This document shows positions 3,829 to 63,443 of a DNA stretch of 64,000 nucleotides, one piece after another. Positions within the stretch are counted from its first letter, which is position 1; every line of letters starts with the position of its first letter. Source of the stretch: an uncultured virus (IMG/VR IMGVR_UViG_3300037067_011978) (Duplodnaviria > Heunggongvirae > Uroviricota > Caudoviricetes); the IMG/VR virus record IMGVR_UViG_3300037067_011978; one strand, 5' to 3'. Below the pieces are notes generated by a model. It had not been told where the DNA came from. It did no database searches and saw nothing but the letters and a program-made list of their open reading frames with translations. Position numbers and translations under genes: made by a program.

Positions 3829-4568
3829 TATTTGTTTTCCTTATTATAAACTTCTATTCCTTTGCCTTTTAGTATATATGCTTCCATTAAAACTTCCGCC
3901 ATTTCAAACTCAGGTAATGTATCGGTATCAGCATATTGCCATATTTCTACTGGGAAATAATTAGTTAAACCTGGTTTAAATTCGTCCATTGTAGGATCAG
4001 GCCAATCTGTATTTTTATCATAATCAGTTTCTAACACATAATCGACTTTTGCAATTCCCCAATTTCCGCCTTCGCGTAAATATTCATAGCCTTTTGAAAA
4101 TATTTCTGTTCTACCTATAAAAGAAGTCAATCTCCTTGTTAAGACAATTTCACGTAAAGGAATCATAGGAAGTAAACTTTCTAACTTCAATCTATCAAAT
4201 AATTCAAACGCATCATCTAATTGTCCGGGTAACACTAATGGATTAGTGCACATCATCGATAACATAATATTAATTGTAGGATCAATTTTTAAACATTCTT
4301 TCAATGCATAACTAACTGCCATACCGCCATGAGGTTTTCTTTCTTTCATCCAATCAGGTTGAATAATAACTTCCGCACCATAATTTCTTGATACATCTGA
4401 TATTTCTTGATCGTCCGTTACAACTACAACTTTATTTACATATTTACATGCTTTTGCTTGCACTATCGACCAAGCAATGAGCGGAACATTACAAAACAAC
4501 TTCACATTCTTTCTAGGAAGCCTTACTGAACCACCGCGCGCAGGAATTATACATATTGCATTATTCAT
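3828..4568 (-). CDS. acylneuraminate cytidylyltransferase (CMP-nonulosonate synthetase, NeuA/PseF-like)
   Basis: IIPARGGSVRLPRKN motif, VVVVTDD, C-terminal DTDT; start placed at the second Met, which follows GGAGG. Confidence 0.85.
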   Translation of the reverse strand: MNNAICIIPARGGSVRLPRKNVKLFCNVPLIAWSIVQAKACKYVNKVVVVTDDQEISDVSRNYGAEVIIQPDWMKERKPHGGMAVSYALKECLKIDPTINIMLSMMCTNPLVLPGQLDDAFELFDRLKLESLLPMIPLREIVLTRRLTSFIGRTEIFSKGYEYLREGGNWGIAKVDYVLETDYDKNTDWPDPTMDEFKPGLTNYFPVEIWQYADTDTLPEFEMAEVLMEAYILKGKGIEVYNKENK

Positions 4569-4714: not shown

Positions 4715-5053
4715 TTATTTTTCTCCATTATAAATATGTGCTTTTATAAAATTAACCCACCCAGGAAAAGGCGGATAACTTCTATCGTCTAAATATAAAT
4801 CTGCATAAACTTTATTTGAAGTTTTAAAATCAGTTTGTATATTTTCATTTACTGCATCAGGCCTAAAATGCCTATCGTCTAACCATTGAATCATTGGATC
4901 AACATATTTGCCTTCTCTACACGTCCATATAATTATTTTATGTCCTAATTTTTGTAATAAGCTTAATGCGAATATTGCACCTTCTTTTTCTTCACCTATT
5001 TCTGGAAACTTATGTTCTACTATTGTTCCGTCAAAATCCACGGCTATTATAAT
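4715..5053 (-). CDS. minimal HAD-superfamily hydrolase
   Basis: IIAVDFDGT, IIIWTCR, K..ADLYLDDR motifs; probable ATT start at 5053, 7 nt after AGGAG. Confidence 0.8.
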   Translation of the reverse strand: MIIAVDFDGTIVEHKFPEIGEEKEGAIFALSLLQKLGHKIIIWTCREGKYVDPMIQWLDDRHFRPDAVNENIQTDFKTSNKVYADLYLDDRSYPPFPGWVNFIKAHIYNGEK

Positions 5054-6086: not shown

Positions 6087-6899
6087 TTACTCCTTCATCG
6101 CCCCGGAAATACCTTGAACAAAAAACTTATTAGCGATTAAAAATATAACAATCAATGGCAACATTAAAACCGTACCTATTGCCATTGATTGTCCATAAGG
6201 GAATCCTGCTAATAATCCATCTTTTAATACCCTTATACTTTTTGTTAACCCTATCAATAATGTTTGATTTTGATCTTTTTGTAAAACTAACATTTGCCAA
6301 ATATAATCTTGTAAATATCCAATAGAACTAAATACAGAAACGGCAGAAATAATCGGCGCGCTTATTGGAATTATTATATGAAATAATATTTGTACTTCAT
6401 TCGCCCCATCTAATCTCGCACTTTCTAATAAACTATTCGGAACAGTTTCAAAATAATTCCTTACTAAGTATAAAAGAAAAGGTGAAAAAATACTAGGCAA
6501 AATAGTAGCTAATAAACTGCCTTGTAAACCTATTTTTTTTATTATTACAAACATAGGAATAATTAATGATATTCTTGGAATCATCAATCCCAATAAAAGT
6601 ATTGTCCATAAAATATTCTTAAATTTGAATTTGTAAAAAGCAAAAACATACCCGCTTGAACATACCGTAATAACAGTCAAAATTACCGTCAATAAAGTAC
6701 CTATCAAAGAATTAATTAACCAAGGAAAAACATTCCATTTTGTCATTCTTAAATAATTTTCTAAAGTAGGATGTAAAGGAAATAAATTAGGGGGCATTTT
6801 CATTATTCCACGCATATTTTGTAATGATCCAACTAGCATAAAATACATAGGGAATAATAGAACAATAAAGAATAGAATTAGTAATATTTTTTTAATCAA
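6087..6899 (-). CDS. carbohydrate ABC transporter permease (MalG-type)
   Basis: Multiple TM segments; EAA loop LLESARLDGA; C-terminal KFFVQGISGAMKE. Confidence 0.92.
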   Translation of the reverse strand: MIKKILLILFFIVLLFPMYFMLVGSLQNMRGIMKMPPNLFPLHPTLENYLRMTKWNVFPWLINSLIGTLLTVILTVITVCSSGYVFAFYKFKFKNILWTILLLGLMIPRISLIIPMFVIIKKIGLQGSLLATILPSIFSPFLLYLVRNYFETVPNSLLESARLDGANEVQILFHIIIPISAPIISAVSVFSSIGYLQDYIWQMLVLQKDQNQTLLIGLTKSIRVLKDGLLAGFPYGQSMAIGTVLMLPLIVIFLIANKFFVQGISGAMKE

Positions 6900-7714: not shown

Positions 7715-8536
7715 TCATTCATTTTCAAACCTCTTTTTTACTAATGACAAACCAATAACCATTACTAATAAAACTATTGCCTCTGCGGCTCCAATTCCAT
7801 ATTTAGAATATTGAAATGAATCTGCATATATGCGAAAAGACATAGTGGCTGTATAATAATTAGGTGACAGAATAAAAATGTATTCGAAAATCATGAATGC
7901 AGTTATAGCTGATAACAACCCAATCAATATCAAAGTATCTTTTATTAACGGAATTATAATCATTCTTTTTATTTGACTTTCGCTTGCACCATCTATTTTT
8001 GCGGCTTCCAATATGCTTTTATCAATAGATAATATCGAAGATAAAATTATTATTACATTACTTCCAAACGTAGAAAAAATAAGTATAAAACTTATTGCAG
8101 GAATTGACGTATACCATTGACCAAACCAATTTATAGGAGTTATTTTTACTAAAGATAAAAGCCAATTCATAGGGCCTTCGAATTTAAATATCCATTGCCA
8201 AGCTTGAGAAATAATAATTCCTGATGATAATACTGGAATATAGGTTATTATCCTAGTATTATCTAACCAATGTTTTTCCATATTATAAACCCATAATGAT
8301 ATTAATAATGAAACTATTATTTGCCCCGGAACTAGAATTATTACATATATTAGACTATTTGATATTGATAATAAAAAATCCTTACTTGTAAATATTGATA
8401 AGTAATTATCAATTCCTACAAAACTAGAAGTGATAAAATTGGTTTTATGTAAAGATAAAGAAAAAACCTCGACTAGAGGCCATAAAGTAAAGAGTATAAA
8501 AAAAATCAATGTAGGTATGAGCAATATTTTTTTCAA
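7715..8536 (-). CDS. carbohydrate ABC transporter permease (MalF-type)
   Basis: FVGIDNY, multiple TMs, EAA loop ILEAAKIDGA, YGIGAA. Confidence 0.92.
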   Translation of the reverse strand: MKKILLIPTLIFFILFTLWPLVEVFSLSLHKTNFITSSFVGIDNYLSIFTSKDFLLSISNSLIYVIILVPGQIIVSLLISLWVYNMEKHWLDNTRIITYIPVLSSGIIISQAWQWIFKFEGPMNWLLSLVKITPINWFGQWYTSIPAISFILIFSTFGSNVIIILSSILSIDKSILEAAKIDGASESQIKRMIIIPLIKDTLILIGLLSAITAFMIFEYIFILSPNYYTATMSFRIYADSFQYSKYGIGAAEAIVLLVMVIGLSLVKKRFENE

Positions 8537-25868: not shown

Positions 25869-26400
25869 AAAATAAATGCGAATATCTTATTTGGGAAGAT
25901 AAGACAGATTATAAGTGTTTAATAGGAGAATCAATAATCCCATATAAGGGTATGATTGGAAGATTGCGAGAATGTGGAGAAGAAGGTAAAGAATATTCTG
26001 TTTATAAAAAGATGAAGAAAGGAAAACCAGAAGGAGCAAAACACAATGTTTGCCTTTGTGAAAAACATTATGAATTGGTTTTAGATAATACTGTAAAGAT
26101 TAAGGAGGAAATATGAAACTATTTGGGTATGAAATCACTATTAAGAAAATACAAAGTTATAAAACTCCTATTGAAAAAGCAAAGGAAGTTATAATAAAAT
26201 ATTACAATGAAAACAAAAATTACTTTAATTGTGGTTCAGATATAGAAATATCAAATAGAAAAATAGAATTAATTAAAATGGCAAGAAGTAATTTAGGAAT
26301 AGACAAAAACGGCATTTGTCTTTTAGGATTAAAAGAATTAAAAGAATTAGTTGAAAGCATGTTTGATTCTAAAATAAAATTTCTAGAATAGTAAATAATT

Positions 26401-26474
26401 GGACCGTTAGCTCAGTTGGCTAGAGCAACACACTTTTAATGTGTAGGTTATTGGTTCGATTCCAATACGGTTCA
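26401..26474 (+). tRNA. tRNA-Lys(UUU)
   Basis: Cloverleaf: GGACCGT/ACGGTTC acceptor, ACACA-CTTTTAA-TGTGT anticodon arm, GTTCGATTC T-loop; no encoded CCA. Confidence 0.93.
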
Positions 26475-26482
26475 AGTTTCTT

Positions 26483-26556
26483 GGCTCCGTAGTCCAACTG
26501 GCAGTGACAAGGGACTTAAAATCCCTCAAGTATGGGTTCGAATCCCATCGGAGCTA
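26483..26556 (+). tRNA. tRNA-Leu(UAA) with short variable loop
   Basis: GGCTCCG/CGGAGCT acceptor, AGGGA-CTTAAAA-TCCCT anticodon arm, GTTCGAATC T-loop, discriminator A. Confidence 0.88.
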
Positions 26557-27501
26557 GTAAGTTTTATTTAGGAGGAAATTATGGATTTTGATAACGAAGA
26601 TAATGAATTGGATAATCTTTTAATGAATATGAATATGGGATTGCTTCCTGAGAATCTTTGTCAATCTGAAATAGAATTATTAGAACAAAAATATGGCAAT
26701 AATTGGTTTGAAAAATTAGGCTATTCCGAACCTAAATACAAGAAGCCATTAAATGCCTAAGCAAAAAAGAAAATCTCCCGTATGGCGATGGGCATTAGAA
26801 AATGACAAGGTGATGCCAGTATTTTATTCCGAAAAGGAAGAGTATAAGGATATTAAGACCTGGAAAAATATCAATGACGTTCCAATTAGGAGGAAAAAAT
26901 GAATCCAGATACCAAGGACGTTTATGAAGAAAATAAAGAATTAAAGGAAATTGTAAGTGAACTACAAAGGGAATTATCAATAGCTAAAAATAAAATTGCT
27001 GATCTTACATACGCAATTATGGGGCATTCTTTAAGTTATTAGGAGGAACTATGAAGAACAGTAAGCAAGAACAAATGTTTTATAATGTAGCAAAACAATA
27101 TGTATTAAAACAGGATTATCTATCAGGCGAAAAGGATGAAGGTGAAATTGAATTATTGAATGAAGAAATCAGGATTCTTTCAGGGAAAATAAAACATTAT
27201 CTTTTCAAACTATGGAAAGAACAAAAGATCATTATTGTTTGGGATAAGGAGGAAGTGAAATGAATAGCAGATATTTTGATAATGATTTATTTGAGAATTT
27301 AGTCAATCAGGTTTGTCAAAAGGAAACTAGAATACTTGGCGGGATATTAATAGGCCCGTCAGATAATAATGATTATATAGAAATGTGGGAAAGGCTTTTA
27401 ACAGAAAAGAAAAAGGAAATAAAGGATATGGAAATTGCGATCAGCCTATTAAAATTGGCTAATGAGTTAAAAGTAAAATATGTAGATTCAGAAGAAGACA
27501 A

Positions 27502-40425: not shown

Positions 40426-41358
40426 ATGGACAAAGTATTAGTAACTGGTGGGGCTGGATTTATAGGCAGTCATTTATGTAAAAAACTAATTGACCAAGGG
40501 AATATTGTCTATTGTTTAGATAACCTATTTACAGGAAATAAAAAAAATATAAAAGAACTTCTTGACAACCCCAAATTTTCTTTTCTGGAATATAATATAA
40601 TCGTGCCATGTGATTTGGATGTCAATAAGGTATATAACCTGGCTTGTCCTGCTAGTCCTATTCATTATCAGTTATTCCCTGTAGAAACCTTAAAGACAAG
40701 TATTCTTGGATCTATAAATATGCTTGATTTGGCGAATAAGAATAAAGCCAGAATTCTACAAACATCGACTTCTGAAATATATGGTAACCCATTTGTTCAT
40801 CCTCAAAAAGAAGATTATTGGGGGAATGTAAATCCGATTGGTGTTCGTTCTTGCTATGATGAAGGAAAACGTTGTGCCGAGACATTATTTTTTGATTATA
40901 ATAGACAATATGGGACAGATATTAGAGTTGTAAGGATATTCAATACTTATGGTCCTAACATGAATATTAATGATGGCAGGGTTGTAAGTAATTTCATAAT
41001 TCAAGCCTTAACAAACGAGGATATAACGATTTATGGTAGTGGATTACAAACAAGGTCTTTTTGTTATATAGATGATATGATAGATGCTTTGCTATTGATG
41101 ATGGGTAATGATTTTATTGGCCCTATAAATCTCGGAAATGAGAATGAATTTACAATTATTGAATTGGCAGAGTTGGTGTTATCTATAACTAATAGTAAAT
41201 CTAAGATAACATTTAATGAACTTCCACAGGATGATCCTAAACAGCGAAAACCAGATATAAGTCTTGCTAAGAACAAGCTGGGATGGGGACCAAAAATTCA
41301 ATTGAAAGAAGGATTGATAAAAACCATAGAATATTTTGAGGAACAATTATGCAAATAG
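40426..41358 (+). CDS. uxs: UDP-glucuronate decarboxylase (UDP-xylose synthase)
   Basis: [68 protein letters not shown]. Confidence 0.93.
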
Positions 41359-42659
41359 CGGTTATAGGAACTGGATATGTTGGCTTGGTTACTGGAGCAT
41401 GTTTTGCTGAATTGGGAAATATTGTTACTTGTATTGATATAGATAAACAAAAAATAGATAATCTAAAAAATGGAATTATTCCAATTTATGAACCAGGATT
41501 ATCAGAACTTGTAAAAAGGAATATAGAAGAAAATAGATTGATATTTTCTACAGAATATTCAGATATAAATAATTCAGAAGTTATTTTTATAGCTGTAGGG
41601 ACTCCATCAAATGAAGATGGTTCGGCCGATCTTAAATATATTAAATCTGTAAGCAGGTCAATTGGTAAATATATAAATGGATACAAAATAATAGTAAATA
41701 AATCCACGGTTCCTGTTGGAACATATAAATTGGTAAAAAATATAATAAATGAAGAGATAGAAAATAGAAAGGCTTTTATTGTATTCGATATTGTATCAAA
41801 CCCAGAATTTTTAAGAGAAGGAACTGCAATAAATGATTTTATGAGACCAGATAGAATAGTTATTGGGTGTAGTAATAGTGTATCTGAAAATGCAATGAGA
41901 AAATTATATGAACCTTTTATAAAAAATCAACATCCATTTATTGTTATGGATAATATTTCTGCAGAGTTGACAAAATATGCTGCTAATACAATGTTAGCAA
42001 CTAGAATCAGTTTTATGAATGAATTAGCAAATCTATGTTCTAAAGTTGATGGTAATATTGATAATGTTCGTTTAGGTATTGGAAGTGATTCAAGGATAGG
42101 ATTGCCGTTTTTATATTCAGGTATCGGCTATGGTGGATCCTGTTTCCCAAAGGATGTCAAGGAACTTATTAATTTTGGGAATAAAAATGGAATCGATATG
42201 AGTATAGCCAAGGCAGTTGAGGATATAAACTATAACCAAAAAAGAATACTATTGAAAATGATAAAAGACAGATTTGGGAATGATTTAAGCAATAAGACCT
42301 TTGCTATTTGGGGGTTATCATTTAATCCACAAACAGATGACATACGGGAATCTCCATCATTAGTTATAATTCAAGGTTTACTTGATATTGGAGCTTCTAT
42401 ACAAGTATATGATCCAGAAGCCATGGAAAACACCAAACAAATATTTGGAAATTCTGTAAAATACATATATAATATGTATGATGTATGTAAAGATTGTAAT
42501 TGCTTGTTATTGCTTACAGCTTGGAAACAATTTAGGCAACCAGATTTTTCTCTTATTAAAAACAATTTAAAAGAACCAATTATTTTTGATGGCAGGAATC
42601 AATATAAATTAGAAGATATGAATGAACTTAGTTTTGAATATCATAGCATAGGACGATAA
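41349..42659 (+). CDS. ugd: UDP-glucose 6-dehydrogenase
   Basis: [48 protein letters not shown]. Confidence 0.95.
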
Positions 42660-42660
42660 T

Positions 42661-42933
42661 GTGAAAAAGAAATTTGTAAAGAAAAATGCTTTATTGGAAA
42701 TCGAAGATAATGAAGAGTGGAGAGAACATTGGAAGGGGATGCCAGAATTTTCCCATAAGGATATTACTCCATATTTTTCCATAAAGATACATTTCAATAC
42801 GAAAGAAAGCATAAAGCAATTTTCAGAATTGGTTGGGCAAAATATTACTGAAAATACCAACTCTATTTGGTATCCAAAACAGAAAATCACCCATGTTGCA
42901 AATAAAAGATATATAGATGAATCAGAAGTATAA
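42661..42933 (+). CDS. small protein coupled to the glycosyltransferase
   Basis: WKGMPEF...LVGQNIT..T.SIWYP; overlaps the glycosyltransferase start. Confidence 0.6.
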   Translation: MKKKFVKKNALLEIEDNEEWREHWKGMPEFSHKDITPYFSIKIHFNTKESIKQFSELVGQNITENTNSIWYPKQKITHVANKRYIDESEV

Positions 42934-43783
42934 ACCAAAGTATCCGATTTATATTATCTCTAAAGGAAGGGCTGATACTGGATTAACATATAAATTCTTG
43001 GAGGAAATGAACCAACCTTATCATATAGTCATAGAGAAACAGGAATATAAACAATATAGGAAATATATAGATAAAGAAAAAATATTAGTATTACCTTTTA
43101 GCAATTTAGGACAAGGTGGGATTCCAGCAAGAAATTGGGTATGGGAACATGCAATTGCTACTGGGTCTTTTCGTCATTGGATTATGGATGATAATATAGA
43201 TGGATTTTGGCGATCAAATCATAATAGAAGGGTAAGGGTAAGGACACCGGCATTATTCAGATGCCATGAGGATTTTATAGATAGATATGAAAATGTTGCT
43301 ATGTCTGGACTTAATTATTATATGTTTTGTCCGGATAAAGTTATAAAACCACCATACGAATTGAATACAAGGATTTATTCATGTATTCTTTTACGAAATG
43401 ATCTTCCTTATCGATGGAGAGGAAGATATAATGAAGACACTGATTTATCAATTAGAATATTAAAAGATGGTTGGTGTACTATATTATTCATGGCAATGCT
43501 AGCTAAGAAAATGCCTACCATGACTATGAAAGGTGGGAATACAGAAGATTTATATGAAATAGAAAATGGAAGATTATTAATGGCTCAGTCACTTGAAGAA
43601 CAGCATCCAGATATAGTTACTATTACTAGGAAATGGGATAGATGGCAACATCAAGTTGATTATTCTAAATTCAAAAATAATAAATTGATATTAAAGAAAG
43701 ATGTAAAAATTCCAGATGGCATAAATAACTATGGAATGAGATTAATCAAATGGGATAAGGAGAAAAATTGTGCTATTAGATGA
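42917..43783 (+). CDS. GREB1/TAGT-like GT-A glycosyltransferase (DNA-base glycosyltransferase family)
   Basis: YPIYIISKGR, ARNWVWEHA, HWIMDDNI, RIYSCIL, YNEDTDLS, KGGNT, WQHQVDY. Confidence 0.8.
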   Translation: MNQKYKPKYPIYIISKGRADTGLTYKFLEEMNQPYHIVIEKQEYKQYRKYIDKEKILVLPFSNLGQGGIPARNWVWEHAIATGSFRHWIMDDNIDGFWRSNHNRRVRVRTPALFRCHEDFIDRYENVAMSGLNYYMFCPDKVIKPPYELNTRIYSCILLRNDLPYRWRGRYNEDTDLSIRILKDGWCTILFMAMLAKKMPTMTMKGGNTEDLYEIENGRLLMAQSLEEQHPDIVTITRKWDRWQHQVDYSKFKNNKLILKKDVKIPDGINNYGMRLIKWDKEKNCAIR

Positions 43784-44585
43784 AGATAGAAATAAATCAT
43801 TTGAAAATTTTTTAATTAGGTGTAGTAAATATCGCAATATAAATGTGGATTTAATTAGAAATATTTTTAATACTACAATAAAATATTTGTTTGCTAATAA
43901 AGAAAAAAGACAAGAATTAAAACTAAACCAAAATCTTGAAAATAGATGGTATAAAGAATTAGATACTGGTAATATAGATTATTCTGTTTATGATACAGAT
44001 GAATATATAGCGGAGCTTTGGGCTTGTTGGATAGTATATTCAAAAAAATATTTACTTTCGATTCAAAAGGAATCATCATTCCCACCGTATGGGATAGTTA
44101 ATAATTTTGGAAAAGTTAAAAAAATAGTTGATTTGGGATGTGGTTTTGGCTATACTACGTTAGCATTAAAACAAATATTCCCTAATGCGGAAGTTTATGG
44201 AACTAACATAGAAAATACAATACAAATTAAATTTGCTAAACAACTTGGTAAAGAAAATAATTTTAATATAGTTAGTAATATTAAAGAGATAAAAGGTAAA
44301 ACCGATCTAGTATTTGCTAGTGAATATTTTGAACATATTTTAGAACCAATTAAGGATTTACATAAAATAGTCAAATATTTAGAACCAAGAAATTTTCTTA
44401 TTGCTAATGCTTTTGGAACAAGAGCTATAGGACATTTTATAAATTATTTATATAATGAGAATGAAATAGACGGGGAATTAATTTCTAGATTATTTAATAA
44501 GGAACTAAAAGAATTTGGATATGAAAAAGTAAAAACAAAACTATGGAATAATAGACCAGCATACTATAAACTAAAGGAGAAATAA
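43770..44585 (+). CDS. class I SAM-dependent methyltransferase
   Basis: IVDLGCGFG; DLVFASEYFEHI..P. Confidence 0.85.
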   Translation: MLLDEDRNKSFENFLIRCSKYRNINVDLIRNIFNTTIKYLFANKEKRQELKLNQNLENRWYKELDTGNIDYSVYDTDEYIAELWACWIVYSKKYLLSIQKESSFPPYGIVNNFGKVKKIVDLGCGFGYTTLALKQIFPNAEVYGTNIENTIQIKFAKQLGKENNFNIVSNIKEIKGKTDLVFASEYFEHILEPIKDLHKIVKYLEPRNFLIANAFGTRAIGHFINYLYNENEIDGELISRLFNKELKEFGYEKVKTKLWNNRPAYYKLKEK

Positions 44586-45664
44586 TGCAACTAAACAAAA
44601 ACGAATTCTTATCCGCAATGAAAAAGGCAATGCCTGGCGTCGAAAGTTCCAATACCATCCTGCAAGGTGCGGATACTTATATTTTTCATAACGGGTATAT
44701 CTATACCTATAATGACGCCATCAGCGTATCTGTACATTTTCCAATCACCAATAAAGCTGGCGAGAATATTTCAGCAGCCATCAAGGCAAAGGATTTTTAT
44801 GATCTGATTTCCCGCTATGAAGGCGATTCACTTACCATCATTCCTAAAAATGATATGTGGATCATCAAGTCAGAAAACGCTAGGGCAGAAATTACGTTAC
44901 TAGAAAATAATCTCATCGAGCGAATCGAAGGCATAAAGATCGATCCTAAGCAATTCAAGAAAATTCCTGATAGGTTCATGGAAGGAATGGCAATATGCAA
45001 TTTTTCTTCTAAGTCACAATTATCAGGATTATTCTGCTCAGATCAGGTTATGGTATCTGCTGATGAGCTGAAGATTAATTGGTATGGATTGAATGATGCT
45101 TTTACTACTAGTTTCTGGATTACCAATGATGCCGTTAATAACCTATTGAAGTTAAATGAAATTACCAAATACCATGTATCTGATTCATGGGTTCATTTTA
45201 TGACTAAGGATAAAACCATTTTTTCCTGCAAGCGATTAGTCCAGGATAAGTACCCGTTTGATAAAATAAATGAGTTGGTTGATAGTCATAAAAAGGTAAA
45301 AGAAGATATTTCAAATGAATTGCCAAATAAGCTGATTGACGCGGTGAATAGGGCGGCGGCGCTAAGCACCAATATTGAAAGTTTCGATACAGTGAAATTG
45401 ACATTCACCCCAGAGATGATAGAAGTATTTGCGCAAAGGCCAAGTGGCAAGTATACAGAAAATGTTCCATGGGAAAAGCCATTTAAGAAGGAATTTGATC
45501 CAATCAGCATTTTCGTTGATTACCAAATGATAGAGAATGGGATAAAATATAGTAAGAGCTTTTATTTACATAATACTTTGGTAAATGAAAAAAATAGGAC
45601 CAGAGTTATTTTCGTATCAGAGTTTGGAATCCAGCTTATTTCTACTTTTGATGGAGGAGAATAA
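44585..45664 (+). CDS. DNA polymerase III beta-clamp-like protein
   Basis: 359 aa; N-terminal LNKNEFLSAMKKA...ILQG; KYP..; LIDAVNRAA; lies just before dnaE. Confidence 0.7.
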   Translation: MQLNKNEFLSAMKKAMPGVESSNTILQGADTYIFHNGYIYTYNDAISVSVHFPITNKAGENISAAIKAKDFYDLISRYEGDSLTIIPKNDMWIIKSENARAEITLLENNLIERIEGIKIDPKQFKKIPDRFMEGMAICNFSSKSQLSGLFCSDQVMVSADELKINWYGLNDAFTTSFWITNDAVNNLLKLNEITKYHVSDSWVHFMTKDKTIFSCKRLVQDKYPFDKINELVDSHKKVKEDISNELPNKLIDAVNRAAALSTNIESFDTVKLTFTPEMIEVFAQRPSGKYTENVPWEKPFKKEFDPISIFVDYQMIENGIKYSKSFYLHNTLVNEKNRTRVIFVSEFGIQLISTFDGGE

Positions 45665-54319: not shown

Positions 54320-54750
54320 AAGGAGAAAATAATTGAACATAAATACCGGGGAAATAATAGATAATGTTGAATATATGAGATTATTAAAAAAAGATAATTT
54401 TGTAGAAATAGATAGTGACGAAATGACTAATAAACAAAAAGAAAAAAAGCAAGTTTCGTTAAAAGATCATACTTCAAGACTCGGCAAAAAATTAACAAAC
54501 ATTAGATCAATAAAAGGTTTAACTAAAAATCAATTACGCAATTTAAAGAAGAAAGGTTTTATTAGATAAACAAAGGAGAAAATAATGGGATTAAAAGAAG
54601 ATATTGAATATTTATTAAATTCATATTCAAGAAATAATAACAGTATTACACCTGATTTTATTTTAGCGGATTATATTGAAAATTCTTTACAAGCTTTTGA
54701 AAAAGCAACTAGACAAAGGGATATTTGGAATAAATCGTTTAAGGAAAATA

Positions 54751-55866
54751 ATGAATAAAGAAACTACAAATATAGAAAAAACTATATTAACTAAAAAAGT
54801 TAAAAAACTTTCTCCTAATAGATATTTAACAGGTTCTGAATTACTGGATATTCAAGTTGGTGGCGGCGAAGGGGCTGGATATCCATTAGGCAAAATAATA
54901 AATCTGGTCGGGGATAAAAGTTCAGGAAAGACATTTTTAGCTTGTGAAATAGTGGCATCAGCACATTATCGATATTTAGATAAATTAAAATGGATATATG
55001 ATGATTGTGAATCAGGATTTTCTTTCAATACCAAAAAATTATATGGTTTTGAAATAATGCCTTTAGATAATTCTAAAAGGACAAAATCAAAAACAGTTGA
55101 AGATTTGTATTGTAATGTTAGAATTTTTTTAGAATCATTAAAGGATAATGAGTTTGGTATTTATGTAATTGACTCGTTGGATGGTCTTGATAGTATTGAA
55201 GGAAAAAAGATAGCAGATCAACAATATAAAAGATTTATTGAAGAATTAAAAAAGAAAAATAAAAAAGTAACGCAACAAGATAAGGAAAAAATAGAGAAAA
55301 AGGTTGCCGGATCTTATCGAATGGGGAAACCAAAATATCTATCAAATACTTTTTTCCCACAATTAACAGATTTAACAGAAAGGAAAAATGCCTTAGTAGT
55401 TGTTATTTCTCAAATTAGATACAATATTACTCCAGGTAGTTTTGAAAAATATACTCGATCTGGTGGAAAGGCAATGGATTTTTATGCTCATACTGTTTTG
55501 TGGCTTGCCAATATAAATAAAATATTAAATAAAGGAATACCTATTGGCATTACGGTAAAGGCTAAAAACACTAAATCAAAAACACCTAGACCTTATAGAA
55601 GTTGTTTTATCAAGTTATATTTTGAATACGGTCTTGATGATATTACTACCAATATTGATTATCTCTATGATTTTTTGACTCCACAAGGAAAGCTAGTAAA
55701 GAATCCTCGCGGAAATTGGGATGATAAGTCAATGTCTAGGAATGAGCTTGTAAAATATATTGAAGAAAATAATGTATCAAAAGAACTAAAGAAAAAGGTA
55801 AAGGATAAATGGGAAGAGATAGAGAACAGCGTCAAGCTAAATAGGAAGCCAAAATATGAAAATTAA
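54751..55866 (+). CDS. recA: RecA/UvsX-like recombinase
   Basis: TGSELLD, GYPLGKI, GDKSSGKT, VIDSLD, ISQIR, SGGKAMDFYA; start moved to the ATG after AAGGA. Confidence 0.88.
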   Translation: MNKETTNIEKTILTKKVKKLSPNRYLTGSELLDIQVGGGEGAGYPLGKIINLVGDKSSGKTFLACEIVASAHYRYLDKLKWIYDDCESGFSFNTKKLYGFEIMPLDNSKRTKSKTVEDLYCNVRIFLESLKDNEFGIYVIDSLDGLDSIEGKKIADQQYKRFIEELKKKNKKVTQQDKEKIEKKVAGSYRMGKPKYLSNTFFPQLTDLTERKNALVVVISQIRYNITPGSFEKYTRSGGKAMDFYAHTVLWLANINKILNKGIPIGITVKAKNTKSKTPRPYRSCFIKLYFEYGLDDITTNIDYLYDFLTPQGKLVKNPRGNWDDKSMSRNELVKYIEENNVSKELKKKVKDKWEEIENSVKLNRKPKYEN

Positions 55867-56518
55867 AAGACGTAAATATGCTAGATGGTCAAATGGAATT
55901 GGATTAGTTTTGCCCACAATTATGGTTTATGGATTTGGTAAATTACTAGGAACTAAATACAATAATTTAGAATATATTTGGTGGATTACTATTTCAGTAT
56001 TAATTTTAATATATCTATGTATTCAATTTGAGATTACTAATGACTAAAAAAGTAGAAAGCCTCATCAAGGATTTAGGACTGACAAAAGCACAATTATATT
56101 CAGTATGGAAGGAATATAATCTATTGTCAAGTGAAGTCGGCAAGGCAAATGCCATTAGCGAAATGATATTATCTGTTGAAGGAATAAATTATGATGCGTT
56201 TAAATATTTTATAGTATTAGGATTTGAAAGTATAAACAAAGAATATTTCAAGGAGATAGAAAATGAAAAATAATTACGTTCATAGATTCTCATTTTATTT
56301 AAGACCAATTTACAAATTAACCGTTTTTATTCAATGGGTATTATGGAAAAATAATATTCATTGGCATAATTCTATTTTCAATGAATGTACTCCTGATTTT
56401 TCTTGCTGTATTAATAAATATCCAGTAGGAAGTAATGAACGATTTATTTTAGGACAAATTGCTAATGGGGCTATGCATAAAGAACCAATTATTCATATTA
56501 ATTTACCATTAGATAAAA

Positions 56519-56905
56519 TTGAATAAACCTAAAAAACCTCCTAAGCTAAAAACATTAAAAAATAAGCTAGACAAAACTTTCAATCTATATATTCGCCTGC
56601 GTGATAAAAAATGTATATTATCTAAAAAGAAAGATCATCTGCAATGTTCGCATTATTATGATTATATGCAAACGCCTAGTCTAAGATGGGATGAGCGGAA
56701 TGCCCATGCGATGACAAACAGAATCCATTATAAGCATCATCATGGCAAGGCGGCTGATTATGCCCATTTTATGTATGAAAAATATGGAATGGAGAAGATG
56801 CATCAATTATATTTAGACAACAAAAAGCCATTTATTGCCACTAGAGAATTTTATATAGAAAAGATTAGATACTTCCAAAACAAAATAGATAGATTAAAAC
56901 GATAA
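56519..56905 (+). CDS. NinG/Rap-like recombination nuclease
   Basis: LDKTFNLYIRLRD..C, QCSHY, LRWDERNAH. Confidence 0.75.
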   Translation: MNKPKKPPKLKTLKNKLDKTFNLYIRLRDKKCILSKKKDHLQCSHYYDYMQTPSLRWDERNAHAMTNRIHYKHHHGKAADYAHFMYEKYGMEKMHQLYLDNKKPFIATREFYIEKIRYFQNKIDRLKR

Positions 56906-56940
56906 AAAATTATAGATATAATGATCGATTAAGGTTAAAA

Positions 56941-57067
56941 CTACTTAACATTTATATAGTAGTTTTAATCTTTTTTATATAAAATCGGCTAAATAATTGT
57001 TTTTAATCCTTTACAAAAACTATTTATATGATATAATGTTATTAAGGTTGATTGATAGGAGGAAGAT
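56941..57067 (+). promoter_or_regulatory. operator-like site plus early promoter (paralogue of 23298-23426)
   Basis: CTACTTAACATTTATATAGTAG ... TATAAAATCGGCTAAATAATTGTTTTTAATCCTTTACA-N16-TATAAT ... TTGATTGATAGGAGG. Confidence 0.8.
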
Positions 57068-57241
57068 ATGATTATTAGTAGGGAAATGAGAGAAAAGGCC
57101 GAAAAGATTGCCAATATGGATTTTTCTGAAAAGAAGCAAGATAATAGCTGGTACGGGAAAAGACTTAGGGCTGAGATTCGTCAAGCAGAAGCCGATCATG
57201 CTGAGTCTCGGGCCATGAATGATTATTTAGAAAATGAATAA
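57068..57241 (+). CDS. small early protein (not in ORF track)
   Basis: 57-aa ORF MIISREMREKAEKIA... after AGGAGG. Confidence 0.7.
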   Translation: MIISREMREKAEKIANMDFSEKKQDNSWYGKRLRAEIRQAEADHAESRAMNDYLENE

Positions 57242-57283
57242 CATGCAAAAACTGATAGCAGATATCCGAGCCGCCGCGCATAA

Positions 57284-57487
57284 TATCCCGAATGGCACTT
57301 TCCCATCCGTGTTCCGCAGAATAAAATGTTCGTCGTCATATTGATGTTGCGTCATTTCCAAAAAAACATAGCCCCAGACTCCGGATGGCCGGGGCGATTA
57401 GAGTCGCTTATCGCCGAATTCCCCGAGCTTCCGATCAGTTGGATGGGTTTTCCAGAAAAATGGAAGGAACATATCCTTTGGCGATAA
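57284..57487 (+). pseudogene. 3' fragment of an Abi_2 (AbiD/AbiF-like) family gene
   Basis: Translates to YPEWHFPIRVPQNKMFVVILMLRHFQKNIAPDSGWPGRLESLIAEFPELPISWMGFPEKWKEHILWR*; in-frame TAA immediately upstream; raised GC. Confidence 0.72.
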
Positions 57488-57772
57488 ATAAATCCGAGCT
57501 TTCCCGAAAACTTTTCCAACTCCCCTCAGAAGGGCGGTCGTTAACAAGTCAAATCCCTGTAAAGCTCCCAGCGATCAGGAACCTCCAGTGTAGCCGAGCG
57601 CAGGATGAAGTGGATGAAAAAAGGAATGAAATAATTAGGGGAATTGAGGTAGAGCTGAATGTCATATTATCTCTAGAAAATCTATTCTTGATCCATTGGA
57701 TTTTATGCTAAAATTAAATTCATAAGGCTATTATGTCTTTTTGTATTATCTTTTTCTAGAGAGGGGAGTGCC

Positions 57773-59176
57773 ATGAAATTCAAGTTTAGTAGTTTAGGTC
57801 CTCTAGATGAGGCTGAAGTAGATTTAGCAAAGCTGACAATAATTTGTGGAAAGAATAATACAGGTAAAACTTATGTTTCATATACAATTTATGGCTTTTT
57901 CGCTAATTGGTATCGAATTGCAAATATAAAGGTTAACACAGCCGACTTTCGTCGACTTCTAGAACAAGGAAGTATTGGAATTGATTTAGAAGATAAAGTT
58001 GCCAATAAATGGATGGATTCAAAAGAAAAATTCGAGATGCGTTGGCAAGAATCTCTTCCAGATATTCTTGCCGCCCCTCCAGCGCGTTTTACTAATACAA
58101 AACTAACATTTGATTTTAGTCTTGACTCGGCCTGGATTGAACGTCCATATACAAAAGAATTTATGAGTGAAAGTGGTAAAGTAATACTATCAGCAAATAA
58201 ACCAGCCAATTGCAAAACAATGGAGCTCGTAGCAATAAAGGATGAAACCGACGATCGTAGTCCTAGATTTATTTTAGAAAGCATGGTTTCTCAAACCCTA
58301 ATGGAGGCAGTTTTTTCACCTTACATTCCGAATGTATTTATGGTTAGCTCTGAAAGAACGGGGGCGGTTACATTTAAAGAAGAATTGAATCTTACAAAAA
58401 ATAGACTAGTTAGTTTTTTATCTAAAACCGATGTGGGGAAAGAATCATTCAATATGGAAGGTCTCTTTAATGCAGTATATAAACATGGATATCCTATTCC
58501 CGTAGAGCATAATGTAATCTATGTTAATCGTTTTGCATCTCTTGAAAGTCGAAGTGGTTCGTTAATAATTGAAAGACCAGATATTCTTGAATACTTTGAA
58601 TCGATTACCGGAGGTCGATATGAGACAAATAAAGATGGAGTAACACATTTCGTACCAATTGGTACAAAAGTCAAGCTTCAGTTAAGTGAAGCATCAAGCT
58701 CTGCTCGTAGCTTAGTCCTATTATGGTATTGGTTAAATTTCGAGGCAACAAATGATTCTATACTAATTATTGATGAGCCTGAAATGAACCTTCACCCCGA
58801 GAATCAAAGAGCTTTTGCACGATTTATTGCTCTATTAACTAATGCTGGTGTTTCAGTATTCATTACGACACATAGTGATACTATTGTAAGGGAAATTAAT
58901 ACCCTCCTTATGTTATCAAGAAATTCAAGTCATTTCAGGGAAATAATGGATAAATATAATTATAAGAAAGAAGAGCTTCTATCCTTATCAGATGTAAGGT
59001 TATATGTCGCGAATGGCAAGCAACGCACTTTATTAAATCGGGTAAAAAAAGGTTCAAAGGCTTGCTTGATAGAAATTAAGCCGACAGAGTCCATGGGACT
59101 TACTGCAGATATTTTCGATGAAACAATCGAAACTATGTCATCAATCCAAGATGCCATTCGATACGGAGCCGAATAG
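57773..59176 (+). CDS. ABC/AAA ATPase of the defence-associated AAA_15/AAA_21 type
   Basis: LTIICGKNNTGKT, LSEASSS signature, IIDEPEMNLHP, ITTHS. Confidence 0.88.
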   Translation: MKFKFSSLGPLDEAEVDLAKLTIICGKNNTGKTYVSYTIYGFFANWYRIANIKVNTADFRRLLEQGSIGIDLEDKVANKWMDSKEKFEMRWQESLPDILAAPPARFTNTKLTFDFSLDSAWIERPYTKEFMSESGKVILSANKPANCKTMELVAIKDETDDRSPRFILESMVSQTLMEAVFSPYIPNVFMVSSERTGAVTFKEELNLTKNRLVSFLSKTDVGKESFNMEGLFNAVYKHGYPIPVEHNVIYVNRFASLESRSGSLIIERPDILEYFESITGGRYETNKDGVTHFVPIGTKVKLQLSEASSSARSLVLLWYWLNFEATNDSILIIDEPEMNLHPENQRAFARFIALLTNAGVSVFITTHSDTIVREINTLLMLSRNSSHFREIMDKYNYKKEELLSLSDVRLYVANGKQRTLLNRVKKGSKACLIEIKPTESMGLTADIFDETIETMSSIQDAIRYGAE

Positions 59177-59269
59177 ATGCCACAATTAAATCCTACAGAT
59201 CTTGAAAACATACTAGAAAAATGTATTATCAGTAAACCTAAAGGTGGCATATTGGTTGTTAAATCATAA
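59177..59269 (+). pseudogene. probable truncated 5' end of the ATPase partner gene
   Basis: ATG abuts the ATPase stop; the ORF ends after 30 aa. Confidence 0.45.
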
Positions 59270-59852
59270 ATATATTTATATAGGTAATGGTTCTCCAATG
59301 ATGGAATCTTTTAAAAGACATATTACAAAAGAAATAATTAAACATGAATAACATGAAAAAACTAAATCCTGATATCCATTACGTAAATAAATCTAAAACA
59401 AAACACTATTACAATAATTTAATTATGACTAATGATGAATGGTCAAAATATATCCATGGGGAATTTATCCAAGGGTATAAACAAATATATGCGAATGACA
59501 AACATAAAAAAGCTACAAAATTATGTGAGCGATGGTATAATCAAGACGATCATAAAACGGCAATTGCAAAACATTGCCCGAATGCTCCGATATATAAAAA
59601 CGATCTTTACCCAATGTTTGTTTGCGGATTTTGCGCTAGGGCAATTTCTAAAATAAACCCTAATGCAAGTTTTTCTAAGATAAAGGAGAAAGACAAATGA
59701 TCGAATGGATTAAGGAAAGAATTGAACAAGCTGAAAATAATCTAAAATATGCCGAAACAGAAAGCGAAAAAGCATATGTTCATGGACAATTATATGAATT
59801 AAAAGATATTTTAGAAGCGTTGAAATCTCAGTAAACAGGGTGAAACATTTTA

Positions 59853-60223
59853 TACTGAATAGCGGGAAATAAGGAGGAATGAAAATGTACGATCTTATTT
59901 ATGGTGACTCTGAAATTGAAACTGAAGTAAGGGAAATGTTTAAGGATTATCCAAAACTAAAAATAGAAGATGCCCAAGATGAAGTACACGAAGAAAGGTT
60001 TTCTATAGAACTTGAAATCGAGGATAAGGACTATTACAAACAAATGATGATTCATGGGTTACATGGGTTTTCATTATCAATGGGATTAATGGCTGGAGAT
60101 GAGGATAAAAAGAAATTAATAAAAGAATTAATTACAGAATTGAGAATAAGCAATCCTGAAATATTCGTAAAATGAAACTAGAAAAGCCTACTGAATTGCA
60201 TGGAATAAGGAGGAATGAAAATG
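59853..60223 (+). repeat. 35-bp leader repeat (two copies)
   Basis: TACTGAAT-N7-AATAAGGAGGAATGAAAATG at 59853-59887 and 60189-60223. Confidence 0.8.
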
Positions 60224-60609
60224 AAAAAGAAAACCAAGGTAATTTATTCTGGATTAGTAAGAAAAGATATAGAAGGACAATGGGATGATGTTGCTAGGGG
60301 TATTTGGATTGGTGAAGATTGTTTAGGTGAAACTACTGCCGATTTTCTTTGGTATGATTATAAAGGGAAGAATATAAAAATAACTATTGAAGAATTGGAT
60401 TAAAATGAAGCTAGAAAAAGTTTGCATTATAGTGAGGTATATATGAAAGAAAAATACCGAATGGTAGGAACTAAAATAACTTCAATTAGAAAAGGATATG
60501 AATGTCAAGGAATAATCGTAGCTTCATTTGTAAATCATGATTATGAAATAAAACCAATAATAGGTTCTAAAATAAAAGATAATTTTATAGTACATATTGA
60601 TGAAATTAA

Positions 60610-61002
60610 ATGAAATTAGAAAAAGTCTATCAAAAATTGATTGATACTCTTTCGCCTACCATTGATTCTACAAAAAAGTATTGGGTAATAGCCGCATCCT
60701 TGGATCATCATAATAATATCATTTCGATAGGCGAAAATAGCTACCAGAAAACTCATCCCATGCAAAGTCGTTTAGCAATAAAAACAGGGAATAGAACAAA
60801 AGAATATCTACATGCTGAAATTGCTTCATTAGTAAAAAACAATAAAAAGCCTGAAAGTATTGTTATAATAAGAATGATAAATAACGGTAAAGTGAAAATG
60901 GCCAAACCGTGTCAAGTATGTATGCTAGCGATAAAAGAAGCAAAGATAAAGTATATTTATTATACAAATGATAATTCTGAAATTATTAAGGAGAAAATAT
61001 GA
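60610..61002 (+). CDS. CMP/dCMP-type zinc deaminase
   Basis: LHAEIA...AKPCQVC. Confidence 0.8.
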   Translation: MKLEKVYQKLIDTLSPTIDSTKKYWVIAASLDHHNNIISIGENSYQKTHPMQSRLAIKTGNRTKEYLHAEIASLVKNNKKPESIVIIRMINNGKVKMAKPCQVCMLAIKEAKIKYIYYTNDNSEIIKEKI

Positions 61003-62125
61003 AATTATTAAGATGTAATGATTGTAAAGATATTTTTTCTTTGTCATCAAGAGAAGAAAAAACTTGTTTTTGCGAAAGATCAAAAGGAAAATATTTAGAT
61101 AGTTTAAATGCTGTTTATTCTGGACCTTGTACCCCATTAGGATTTGATAATATGAGTTTTAATCATGCAATAATGAACCAAAAAGAAAAAGGAAATGGAA
61201 CAGAATTTAAAGCATTTATAATTCCCAAAAATTGCAGTACGTTTATTAAGGAGGATATATGAAAGTAGAAATTGAAATTGATGAAGATTTGATAAAAAGA
61301 ACTATTATTGATTTATCTAAAAAACAAATAACTTCATATTTAAATGATTATACTGTTGAAAGGAATATAAGAAATAAAATTGATGAATATGGGAAAGATA
61401 TAATTGAAGAAATAATTAAAGAAGAACTTAAAAATATTCCTGCAATACGGGAAGTTGTAAAATTAAAGCTTGAAAATAAAATAAGAATGCAATTAACTAA
61501 AATAATGAATGAGGTTGAATAATGAATAAGGAAACTATAAAAGAAAATTTAGGAAATTCTGGTTTAATTCTTATTGTGTTAGCAATATTGATTGGATCAG
61601 GAATTGGTTATGTAATTAACGATCAAGCAAAACCGGCTAGACCAGAAGCACAATGGATTTCTCCTAATGAAAAAATGCCTGAATTAGATAAAACTATTTT
61701 TGGTTTATATCGAGTCAAAAAACAGGGCAACAGCAAAATGATAGTAAATAGTTTTTATAAAGGAAACGATTGTGAAAAATATTTAGAAGCTGTTAACATA
61801 AAATGCACAAAAATGGATTGGGGAGTTGGAAAAACAGAATTGTATTGGGTATTTGATGAAACAGAAGATATCGCACTAGAAAATTTAGGTCCACCTATTA
61901 GATGGAGTGAATTACCAATTTTGCATGACAGAATATTGGAGTAATATCATGGGGCCAATTTTTAATTGTATGGGAAATAATAAGTTTAAAGAATATTGTA
62001 AAAAATGTATTAGATATCCTACAAATAAAAAAGATGAATTAAATGATAATTGGTTAAAGCATGAAAATATGATAAGTGTTAATGGCAAATGCAGAGCGTT
62101 TATTGAAAGATAATAAGGAGGAATC

Positions 62126-62797
62126 ATGGTAACGCGCGAGCAGTATGACAACGCGGTAAAGATTAGGGATAATGGGTATAGGTGTAGCGATTTGGGGCCT
62201 AATGGGCTTTCTTGTTGTAAGAGTCAATGCTTTGACTCTATTTCTTTTAATTGTGGAAGCAGCTCCGAACCAAATGGACGCCGAAAACAAGTAGTCGATG
62301 ACCGCATCTCCACCTACGAAACCGAGCATCCCGAGGATTTCGGCCCCGGCGAGGGGTGGCGATGGCTGAAACCTGAGGCAGATATCCTATGCAAAGGGGA
62401 TGAGAACTATTTCAGATCGGTTGAGTTTAGGCCGATAAATCCAGAGTTATTCGGCCAGATTGTCAAGCTCCAAAATGGCTTCCGTCGCCGCATCTCAAAG
62501 CCTCGCATATACACCTATGAGGACGTAAACCTACCCGAGGTTCAAGCGTTAGTGGGGAAAATGGTTTATGTGTGCGATTGTTACCGAAAGATAAACGAAG
62601 AACCAGAAAACCAAGTAATATTGTATGAAATAAAGGTAGATAAATGGCACCCATTTATTGATAAATCGAGGAACTGGTGGCAATTCATCCGCGCGATTGA
62701 TCCTATCCGCCTCACCCGTGCCGAGCTTATCGCCATAGCTGCCAAGGCTCGCGGCGTCAACCCTGAACAGATCGTAGTGGAGGATGAATCGAAATGA
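62126..62797 (+). CDS. hypothetical protein, elevated GC
   Basis: 223 aa with AAGGAGG RBS; Cys-rich N-terminus. Confidence 0.65.
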   Translation: MVTREQYDNAVKIRDNGYRCSDLGPNGLSCCKSQCFDSISFNCGSSSEPNGRRKQVVDDRISTYETEHPEDFGPGEGWRWLKPEADILCKGDENYFRSVEFRPINPELFGQIVKLQNGFRRRISKPRIYTYEDVNLPEVQALVGKMVYVCDCYRKINEEPENQVILYEIKVDKWHPFIDKSRNWWQFIRAIDPIRLTRAELIAIAAKARGVNPEQIVVEDESK

Positions 62798-63443
62798 TTT
62801 GTGAAACATGCGGAAACCTTATCGAGGATTGCGAATGTGAACGAGATGAAGATCAAGGTCCATTATCAGACGATATAGGAGAAACTGATTATGACGGGGA
62901 TGGTATCTAGCCGCCCAGCGCTCAACCCTAGAGGCGGCGGAGAGATTTTGCAGAATTTGTCCGGTTCCGATAGATGATTGTCAATGCCCTACACGGTTCA
63001 ACATCGAAACAGAATGCGATTATTACCAGGCCATCCTCGAACCGATCAAGGAGTAAATATGAAATTAACAAATGAACAGTCAAATCTAAAAGATAATATT
63101 CAAGAAGATTTAGTAAAAATAACTTATTTAGAGGAGAAAATAAAAGCAAATAAAAAACATATTAAAAATATTGTATCAAGGATAAATAATATTTTTACTG
63201 CATTGAATACTATAAGGGGCTATCTATGAAATGTATTTGCGGATATGATGAAAACGATGAATTTAGATGGTTTTCTCACCCTTCACATATAGAAAAGGAT
63301 TTGCCAAAATTTAAAAGAATAGATGGAAGATTTTTTGTTGGTGATGAAAAAGAAATTGAACTTTTTATGTGCCCAAAATGTGGGACTATTCAAGGCAGAT
63401 AGTTAATCATCTTTTAACTTCCTATAATAAAAATACTAACGCT

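Follow-up and report, generated by a model that had tools for sequence, protein, structure and literature searches.

An orphan PD-T4-4-type ATPase gene in a phage genome, probably left by recent capture of part of a DISARM-embedded bacterial defence locus

Many bacterial defence systems couple an ABC-type ATPase (here A) to a nuclease (here B). The proteins of PD-T4-4, one such system from Escherichia coli, are reported to assemble into higher-order complexes (bioRxiv 10.1101/2025.07.10.664194). WonAB of Vibrio cholerae, an abortive-infection system made of an OLD-type ABC ATPase and a nuclease, supplies the sole functional data on the interdependence of A and B that we draw on; in the parts of that report used here, the nuclease is toxic only in excess over the ATPase, the ATPase alone has no phenotype, and protection needs both genes (PMC12137116). 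Here we describe a PD-T4-4-type ATPase gene that stands without its nuclease in an uncultured virus of the class Caudoviricetes (IMG/VR record IMGVR_UViG_3300037067_011978). The whole stretch analysed, 64,000 nucleotides (nt) long, is referred to as the window. It appears that the phage captured, fairly recently, part of a PD-T4-4-like locus embedded in DISARM and was left with an orphan sensor ATPase.

Phages are known to build counter-defences from the harmless half of host systems, and they carry orphan antitoxin-like homologues of defence components, for example against DarTG1, as described in the portion of PMC11825919 drawn on here. Few natural examples have been seen near the moment of capture, and the literature searched held no comparable capture for the widespread ABC-ATPase-plus-nuclease systems. 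Since both junctions and the neighbouring genes of the donor are visible, and a sister phage lacks the insert, the locus offers a clean natural experiment, and it could show whether the sensor subunits of such systems can be turned against them.

The captured segment and its junctions

The features of the segment and its flanks are as follows (window coordinates; strand where one applies; ORF, open reading frame; aa, amino acids; GC, guanine plus cytosine).

57010-57037, + strand: sigma-70-like promoter (TTTACA, 16 nt, TG-n-TATAAT)
57068-57241, + strand: 57-aa phage ORF without family match, overlapping the start of the next ORF with its stop (ATGAATAA)
57231-57267: left copy of a direct repeat, 37 nt, imperfect, 81% identical to 59341-59377
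57234-57344, + strand: short ORF beginning MNNMQKLIADIRAAAH, with a phage 5' part (57234-57283) and a chimeric stop at 57344
57284-57487, + strand: 3' end of an Abi_2-family gene (67 codons, 57284-57484, and the stop), 47.5% GC
57488-57594: stretch of unrecognised origin, 107 nt, 49.5% GC
57595-57711, + strand: 3' remnant of a DISARM drmD (SNF2 helicase) gene, about 38 codons plus stop, 35% GC
57712-57772, + strand: AT-rich spacer, 61 nt, with the ribosome-binding site GAGGGGAG ahead of the ATPase start
57773-59176, + strand: ABC ATPase of the PD-T4-4_A family, 467 aa, intact frame, 35.4% GC
59177-59269, + strand: 30-codon ORF starting at the base after the ATPase stop, 29% GC
59270-59343, + strand: AT-rich phage-like stretch, 21.6% GC, containing the 3' end of a 35-aa ORF; the stop of this ORF overlaps the next gene's start
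59341-59377: right copy of the direct repeat, 37 nt, covering the start of the 118-aa gene
59344-59700, + strand: 118-aa phage ORF without family match, first codons MNNMKKLNPDI

We consider it very probable that illegitimate or micro-homology recombination placed about 1.9-2.0 kb from a bacterial defence locus in a hyperplastic region of the phage genome, because the segment holds a full-length A and the tails of an Abi_2-family gene and of drmD, its ATPase nests in a bacterial clade, the insert is missing from a related phage contig (L110), and both junctions are bridged. An initial annotation, made from the letters and their open reading frames, had already read the segment as part of a bacterial defence island captured with both flanking genes broken, leaving an orphan ATPase behind a phage promoter. 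Both points are upheld, the former by the same nesting, insert-less relative and bridged junctions, together with pieces that are collinear with bacterial loci. The window has an overall GC content of about 30%; around the insert it reaches 42-49% in 57100-57700, stands near 35% in the ATPase gene and drops to 22-30% past 59270, where phage-like sequence resumes as had been noted.

Two metagenome runs from two studies, one of landfill (2018) and one of groundwater (2022), hold all sampled words of 56900-59700, and both are flagged as possible sources of virus records. Their per-run contigs span 56000-60646 (6,614 nt) and 57041-60646 (3,606 nt) and bridge both junctions with 0 differences, which is the outcome that the proposed check against an assembly chimera needed for a real insert. 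Depth over the insert continues that of the flanks (8.09 throughout in run X1; 25.9, against flanks of 18.6-31.3, in run X2). Over 56000-60500 the window is 100% identical to a virus record filed separately (G001), and a third run, from the second study, has a 3,422-nt contig with the joints in the insert-less form of L110.

The insert-less relative, a comparison that the initial annotation had called for, fixed the left junction. The NinG-like protein of L110 is 89% identical to that of the window, and the two are collinear on both sides of the insert (54745-55860, 56531-56883 and 60608-60877), while the distance from the NinG-like gene to the deaminase-like gene is 3,704 nt in the window and 837 nt in L110. 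Window 57239-57283 matches L110 4720-4764 at 97.8% identity over 45 nt, and the homology stops exactly at 57283; thus the GC-rich letters GAGCCGCCGCGCATAA are phage sequence and the foreign DNA starts at 57284. On this alignment we place the left junction at 57283|57284. The small phage ORF truncated by the insertion has 39 aa in L110 and begins MDIIDPNMQKLIADIRAAAHKERQ. The short ORF said to run into higher-GC DNA does exist, but its GC-rich start, to 57283, belongs to the phage.

The promoter and the 57-aa gene behind it stand where they had been annotated. The promoter scores 11/12, is the top site within 56400-60700 and may fire early; no terminator-like site on the + strand lies between it and 59344. 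The promoter, its leader and a ribosome-binding site (to 57070) make up a cassette common to related phages: 57011-57071 matches L110 twice (4503-4564 and 4920-4977), ahead of different small ORFs, and several contigs of run X3 terminate at 57071. Such cassettes of promoter, leader and ribosome-binding site recall the mobile early-promoter cassettes known from T4-type phages. The interval between the NinG-like and deaminase-like genes is a hyperplastic region of promoter-plus-small-ORF cassettes, beside the replication genes. The 37-nt repeat pair is the largest direct repeat in 56900-59800 and brackets the whole unit. Its left copy is a hybrid, in which the start of the 118-aa gene (ATGAATAACATG) is joined to the L110-type small ORF, and the first codons of the 118-aa ORF resemble those of the truncated small ORF. 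This structure suggests short-homology shuffling among cassettes, and the direct repeats would permit loss of the unit by recombination.

The right junction lies within 59177-59270, and the foreign DNA, whose right end is placed only within that interval, comes to ~1,986 nt (57284-59269). Searches with the 118-aa gene among viral contigs, and a search with a degenerate pattern from 59283-59320, returned the same virus only. A local alignment of 59240-59345 with L110 was non-significant, its score being reached by 140/1000 shuffles and by 9/72 real window pieces.

As for the gene remnants, the last 67 codons of an Abi_2-like gene had been recognised correctly. Against 1.84 billion representatives the fragment has 273 matches at an expect (E) value <=1e-3 and 20 at <=1e-10, the best at 6e-17 with 55% identity, and the matches always sit at the C-terminal end of targets of 275-323 aa. 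Pfam Abi_2 was found in 8/8 full-length matches tested (a ninth scanned match, a 98-aa fragment, was without family), and the PADLOC AbiD profile matches the fragment at positions 227-275 of 277 (E 6.6e-5). The 67-aa fragment itself has no Pfam match because it lies C-terminal to the Abi_2 domain (PF07751); we therefore speak of a gene remnant and not of an Abi_2 member protein.

The drmD remnant had been overlooked. A profile built from six bacterial DrmD C-termini matches 57595-57711 with 23.3 bits (E 1.8e-8), which is the sole match in a six-frame scan of the whole window, solely through positions 52-87 of its 90 residues; tblastn of the remnant to locus L007 gives E 2.5e-5. No helicase-domain sequence (SNF2-related, Helicase_C) lies upstream of the remnant, and the window holds no DISARM function. 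No remnant of a methylase N-terminus was found in 57250-57760. An Rfam scan of 56500-60000 at E<=1 gave no match, at 57488-57594 or elsewhere, and the GC-rich stretch as a known structured RNA was thereby ruled out. The difference between the Abi_2 part and the spacer after it (48-49% GC) and the drmD tail, ATPase and 30-codon stub (29-35%) was considered as an amelioration clock and rejected, because bacterial loci vary internally in a similar way, with the ATPase ~2-8 points below its locus. GC at third codon positions is 20-24% in four phage genes and 24.8% in the ATPase.

The ATPase, its bacterial counterparts and the phage

The 467-aa ATPase is intact, as had been stated. The PADLOC profile PD-T4-4_A (PDLC04033) matches it along its full length (E 1.2e-139, with residues 1-466 aligned to 1-458 of the 460 profile positions); PDC-M47A (E 1.2e-127), Pfam AAA_15 and a PHROG family of unknown function (phrog_13167, E 1.6e-43) match as well, and close relatives all cover 100% of the protein. 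In a 27-sequence alignment, the other 26 sequences agree without exception at 71 columns, and the phage protein retains 67 of these. Among the invariant columns kept are GKNNTGKT (26-33), IIDEPE (332-337) and TTHS (365-368), which we take to be Walker A, the Walker B region and the H-loop region, respectively. The AlphaFold model is confident, with a predicted local distance difference test (pLDDT) of 80.9 and a predicted template-modelling score (pTM) of 0.82. Its nearest solved folds are PtuA chains (Foldseek E 2e-8) and Rad50/SMC heads, at template-modelling scores of 0.31-0.38; no solved structure was found among close relatives, and matches in the PDB were confined to the Walker B region. 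From its position, the gene may be expressed from the promoter at 57010 and its own ribosome-binding site.

In bacteria, the gene upstream of the ATPase encodes DrmD (PADLOC E 9e-196; Pfam SNF2-rel_dom and Helicase_C), and in the closest clade an A+B pair lies between drmD and a type III-like methylase gene (E 8e-218); the ends of drmD and of the methylase gene may serve as recombination flanks for cassette exchange. Defence genes embedded in DISARM have been reported (bioRxiv 10.1101/2024.01.29.577857, in the part used here). The insert is collinear with bacterial loci in 3-4 pieces, namely the drmD 3' end, the 61-nt spacer, A and the position of the B start, and the spacer arrangement is matched in L003 (drmD end 3236, A start 3306). 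Abi_2 was found near the ATPase in 0/189 loci (eight Abi_2 queries, E<=1e-5), so the order Abi_2, drmD tail, A is without a sampled counterpart. Bacterial DISARM loci also carry extra partial drmD 3' copies: in L005 (5961-6197) one such copy lies between two ATPase cassettes, fused to the remnant of a methylase N-terminus, and in L004 (3087-3799) drmD has shrunk to pieces of 156 and 83 aa.

In a quick maximum-likelihood tree (73 rows), the phage ATPase is sister (support 99) to two metagenomic sequences, P0002 and P0003, which are 62% and 60% identical to it. The trio is in turn sister (support 100) to a clade with Polaromonas and other betaproteobacterial sequences from metagenome-assembled genomes (MAGs). 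This nesting, together with the gene debris, gives the direction of transfer as from bacterium to phage.

The partner gene is regular in bacteria. Six loci belonging to the same virus or to L110 (L001, L082, L108-L111) were left out of the count, and the ATPase C-terminus was aligned on the + strand in 156 of the others, of which 144 have an ORF of >=120 aa starting -30 to +80 nt from the ATPase stop. These coupled ORFs match PD-T4-4_B (L025 1.3e-84, L005 2.7e-18, L003 7.6e-16, L004 1.2e-12, L012 1.6e-9). They are without Pfam family in 4/4 tested and share D78, E95, K97 and Q109 (a conserved D...ExK), which fits the assignment of B to the PD-(D/E)xK nucleases in the literature drawn on.

In the phage, the 30-codon ORF occupies the position at which PD-T4-4_B starts in bacteria and ends well before the conserved D78, E95 and K97. 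The coupled ORF of the initial annotation is thus present and abuts the ATPase stop, but homology to B is not demonstrable: the B profile scores -0.7 bits on it, and in a permutation against 129 B N-termini, which are poorly conserved, 96, 65 and 133 of 300 shuffles reach the three observed scores. We regard it, by position only, as a putative B gene start. No B was found with the PD-T4-4_B profile, whether in 59100-60000, across the whole window (top score 0.8 bits) or in G001. As a control, the same profile finds B beside the ATPase in 16/16 viral loci (L083-L098), whose ATPases are merely 28-35% identical to that of the phage; it also gives a weak B match in L102. In L099-L101 and L103-L107, another eight viral loci, the ATPase itself is matched only weakly or in part, and B is absent. 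The adjacent coupled nuclease is therefore scored as absent by profile, and the locus is not, on these matches, a two-gene PD-T4-4 system.

The segment was also expected to identify the host, which it did not: the best protein relative is the 62% one, no DNA-level match was found in the collections searched, and relatives other than P0002 and P0003 are <=55% identical. The contigs of these two were not recovered among the matches listed in a metagenome scan, which contained at least 458 relatives among 598 stretches listed, the best at 42% apart from the same record. A profile scan of species genomes gave at least 547 relatives among 605 stretches listed (best 53%), a single-protein scan of species genomes gave 14 pattern matches, none of them a relative, and 401 genomes of the phylum of the Sulfuricurvum MAG gave 14 matches at E<=1e-50 (best 49%). 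Relatives closer than those listed in the genome and metagenome scans may exist. Among 50,697 phage records, blastn with 57000-59500 found no match, and ATPase homologues occur in three, two of which are named Vibrio phages; the match is the same, 29.9%, in all three. A viral locus of the same length (L094) has B beside its ATPase.

The phage is AT-rich and large, and its gene set, a lytic replication module, suggests a virulent type. A family scan of 33 of the 64 window ORFs of >=100 aa shows a replication and nucleotide-metabolism module, with a family-B DNA polymerase, clamp loader, primase and two helicases, as well as a DNA methyltransferase, sugar-nucleotide enzymes and a glucosyltransferase. 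RecA/UvsX-like and NinG-like proteins are encoded directly upstream of the insert region. A second high-GC island (62100-62800, 45-53% GC), which may be another foreign insertion, carries a 223-aa ORF (62126-62797) with no Pfam match and no usable ESM Atlas match. A cluster at 40426-45661 has PHROG matches to a nucleotide-sugar epimerase, UDP-glucose dehydrogenase and beta-glucosyl-HMC-alpha-glucosyltransferase, which suggests sugar hypermodification of the phage DNA, an anti-restriction trait. Genes for tRNA-Lys(TTT) and tRNA-Leu(TAA) lie within 26400-26557; a virally encoded tRNA is reported to neutralise PARIS (PMC11464382, in the part used). The window further holds two distinct dCMP-deaminase-like genes, at 2723-3433 (- strand) and 60610-61002 (+ strand), and a paralogous ORF pair, at 6087-6896 and 7715-8533 (both - strand), of which both members match phrog_1577, of unknown function.

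Possible roles of the orphan ATPase

The donor was very probably a DISARM-type system with accessory defence cassettes between drmD and the methylase, in the order Abi_2, a leftover drmD 3' end and a PD-T4-4-like pair A+B. From it the phage very probably acquired the Abi_2 tail, the drmD leftover, the whole of A and <=30 codons of B. If transcription from the 57010 promoter reads through and the gene's own ribosome-binding site is used, the ATPase would be made early and free of nuclease. If the source host had the complete system, then at capture the A of the phage would have exactly matched the A and B of that host. Surplus A without its effector might blunt the abortive response by raising the A:B ratio, or via mixed or excess A assemblies, or by soaking up a phage-derived trigger.

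For this whole mechanism, in which the phage ATPase is an effector-less counter-defence, our rough probability is 0.4. A sharper version, that a virulent phage took the sensor ATPase of its own host as a perfectly matched early decoy (A:B buffer, assembly poison or trigger sponge), strikes us as rather unlikely. In favour of a counter-defence role, the phage does hold a lone, expressibly placed homologue of a defence subunit, intact and with no B found. The mechanism gains plausibility from the toxicity of the WonAB nuclease only in excess over its ATPase, from the higher-order complexes of PD-T4-4 and from the orphan antitoxin-like homologues that phages carry. If the decoy holds, it would be the first such counter-defence against a large class of nuclease-NTPase systems, caught soon after capture.

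Several points weigh against the decoy. In the parts of the WonAB report used here, nuclease toxicity requires an active ATPase and simple sequestration is ruled out (PMC12137116). The initial framing of such ATPases as antitoxin subunits is too simple on this account, and the titration or neutralisation of the host effector suggested with it is a conjecture; extra A could even be neutral or harmful to the phage. The orphan does not recur across phages: no other was found among 26 viral-contig relatives of the ATPase, the next best of which is 35% identical, or in the 50,697 phage records, and all 16 other viral contigs with a full-length ATPase retain B. By chance alone, it is not improbable that a random 2-kb piece includes one gene whole. 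The ATPase still has about 490 nt of debris from other genes attached upstream, which looks recent and untrimmed. Of 112 columns with >=90% conservation, the protein deviates at 10 and its close relatives at 0-6, and its terminal branch is 0.49, against 0.15-0.19 in its sisters. These changes and the long branch are compatible with some relaxed constraint; in favour of intactness, the relative-rate excess is non-significant (54 vs 40 unique changes, chi-square 2.09). The two sampled ATPase copies are 100% identical, so that no test of purifying selection is possible. Finally, the segment, as far as its matches go, names neither donor nor host.

Given the capture, the odds between the decoy and a passenger are roughly even. 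In the latter case the same capture would have brought in an ATPase that is useless or slightly costly to the phage, whole by chance and too young to have decayed, and we find this about as credible as the decoy. It would account for an orphan limited to one lineage, for the untrimmed remains of two other genes, which are still in frame, for identical copies of what may be a young event, and for the somewhat larger number of conserved-column changes and the longer branch; the site, in a hyperplastic region that tolerates variable content (837 vs 3,704 nt), also suits it. On the other hand, the insert-bearing phage occurs in two studies and two habitats, in 2018 and 2022, at flank-like depth, and is hence not a rare defective variant; all catalytic-type motifs are retained; and a defence component behind a strong promoter is the expected look of a selected counter-defence capture. 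Even a passenger would document that DISARM-embedded cassettes reach lytic phage genomes.

A different benefit to the phage is improbable. The ATPase could act against competing phages or mobile elements with an unrecognised partner, or serve in DNA metabolism; such systems often sit on mobile elements or prophages, with 16 viral loci carrying the A+B pair and PD-T4-4 itself reported within an element resembling an integrative and conjugative element (PMC9519451, in the part used), and the neighbouring small ORFs have no known function. Yet those ORFs are phage-like in composition and not co-captured, the window and G001 hold no B-like nuclease, WonAB is reported to protect only with both genes (PMC12137116), and the gene set is a lytic replication module. 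The reverse direction, an old phage ATPase gene from which the bacterial cassettes derive, is very improbable: the match to phrog_13167 would suit it, but two bacterial defence-gene remnants flank the ATPase in bacterial order, the protein nests within a bacterial clade, and a related phage lacks it. A misjoining of phage and bacterial reads is more improbable still, since against the abrupt composition shift at both insert ends and the metagenomic origin of the window stand the zero-difference contigs of two studies with their flank-like depth, the identical separately filed record, and L110-collinear phage sequence on both sides.

Comparison with known systems

The phage PhiTE reportedly captured the ToxI antitoxin RNA and so escaped ToxIN, taking the neutralising half of a host abortive-infection system by one-step recombination. 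That case is said to involve RNA repeats and to have been shown experimentally, whereas the orphan ATPase is a protein for which we infer such a role. AdfN, a DarG1-like NADAR protein of T4-like phages, is likewise a lone, non-toxic, phage-borne homologue of a defence component; as described in the part of the report used, it reverses the DNA modification of the toxin enzymatically and occurs in many phages (PMC11825919). The effect of the orphan ATPase, in contrast, would be stoichiometric or exerted through mixed assemblies, and the gene is found in one lineage only.

The organisation of WonAB is called PD-T4-4-similar by its authors (PMC12137116, in the sections used). Unlike the phage locus, it is a complete two-gene system carried by a prophage, and the likeness drawn here follows that description and not the sequence of WonA. 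PARIS, Septu and AbiE had been named as examples of systems with such ATPases; the locus is instead PD-T4-4-like and of a kind embedded in DISARM. AriA of PARIS, PtuA of Septu and retrons, and GajA of Gabija share the ABC-ATPase superfamily with the phage protein, but they match far more weakly than PD-T4-4_A and have different partner nucleases (TOPRIM, HNH). PARIS was rejected as a candidate, with AriA at E 2.8e-25 against 1.2e-139 for PD-T4-4_A, and with a partner gene in the relatives that matches PD-T4-4_B and not AriB.

Cassettes embedded in DISARM, BREX and type I restriction-modification loci resemble the donor arrangement, with the closest bacterial A+B pair between drmD and the methylase; the window keeps just the 38-codon drmD tail of it. 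The nearest counterpart is PD-T4-4 (PDC-M47) itself. The phage locus differs from it in having no B beyond <=30 codons and in an A that is phage-borne and <=62% identical to sampled relatives, and it agrees with it in the end-to-end match of A and in the gene that follows A in the bacterial relatives, which is PD-T4-4_B.

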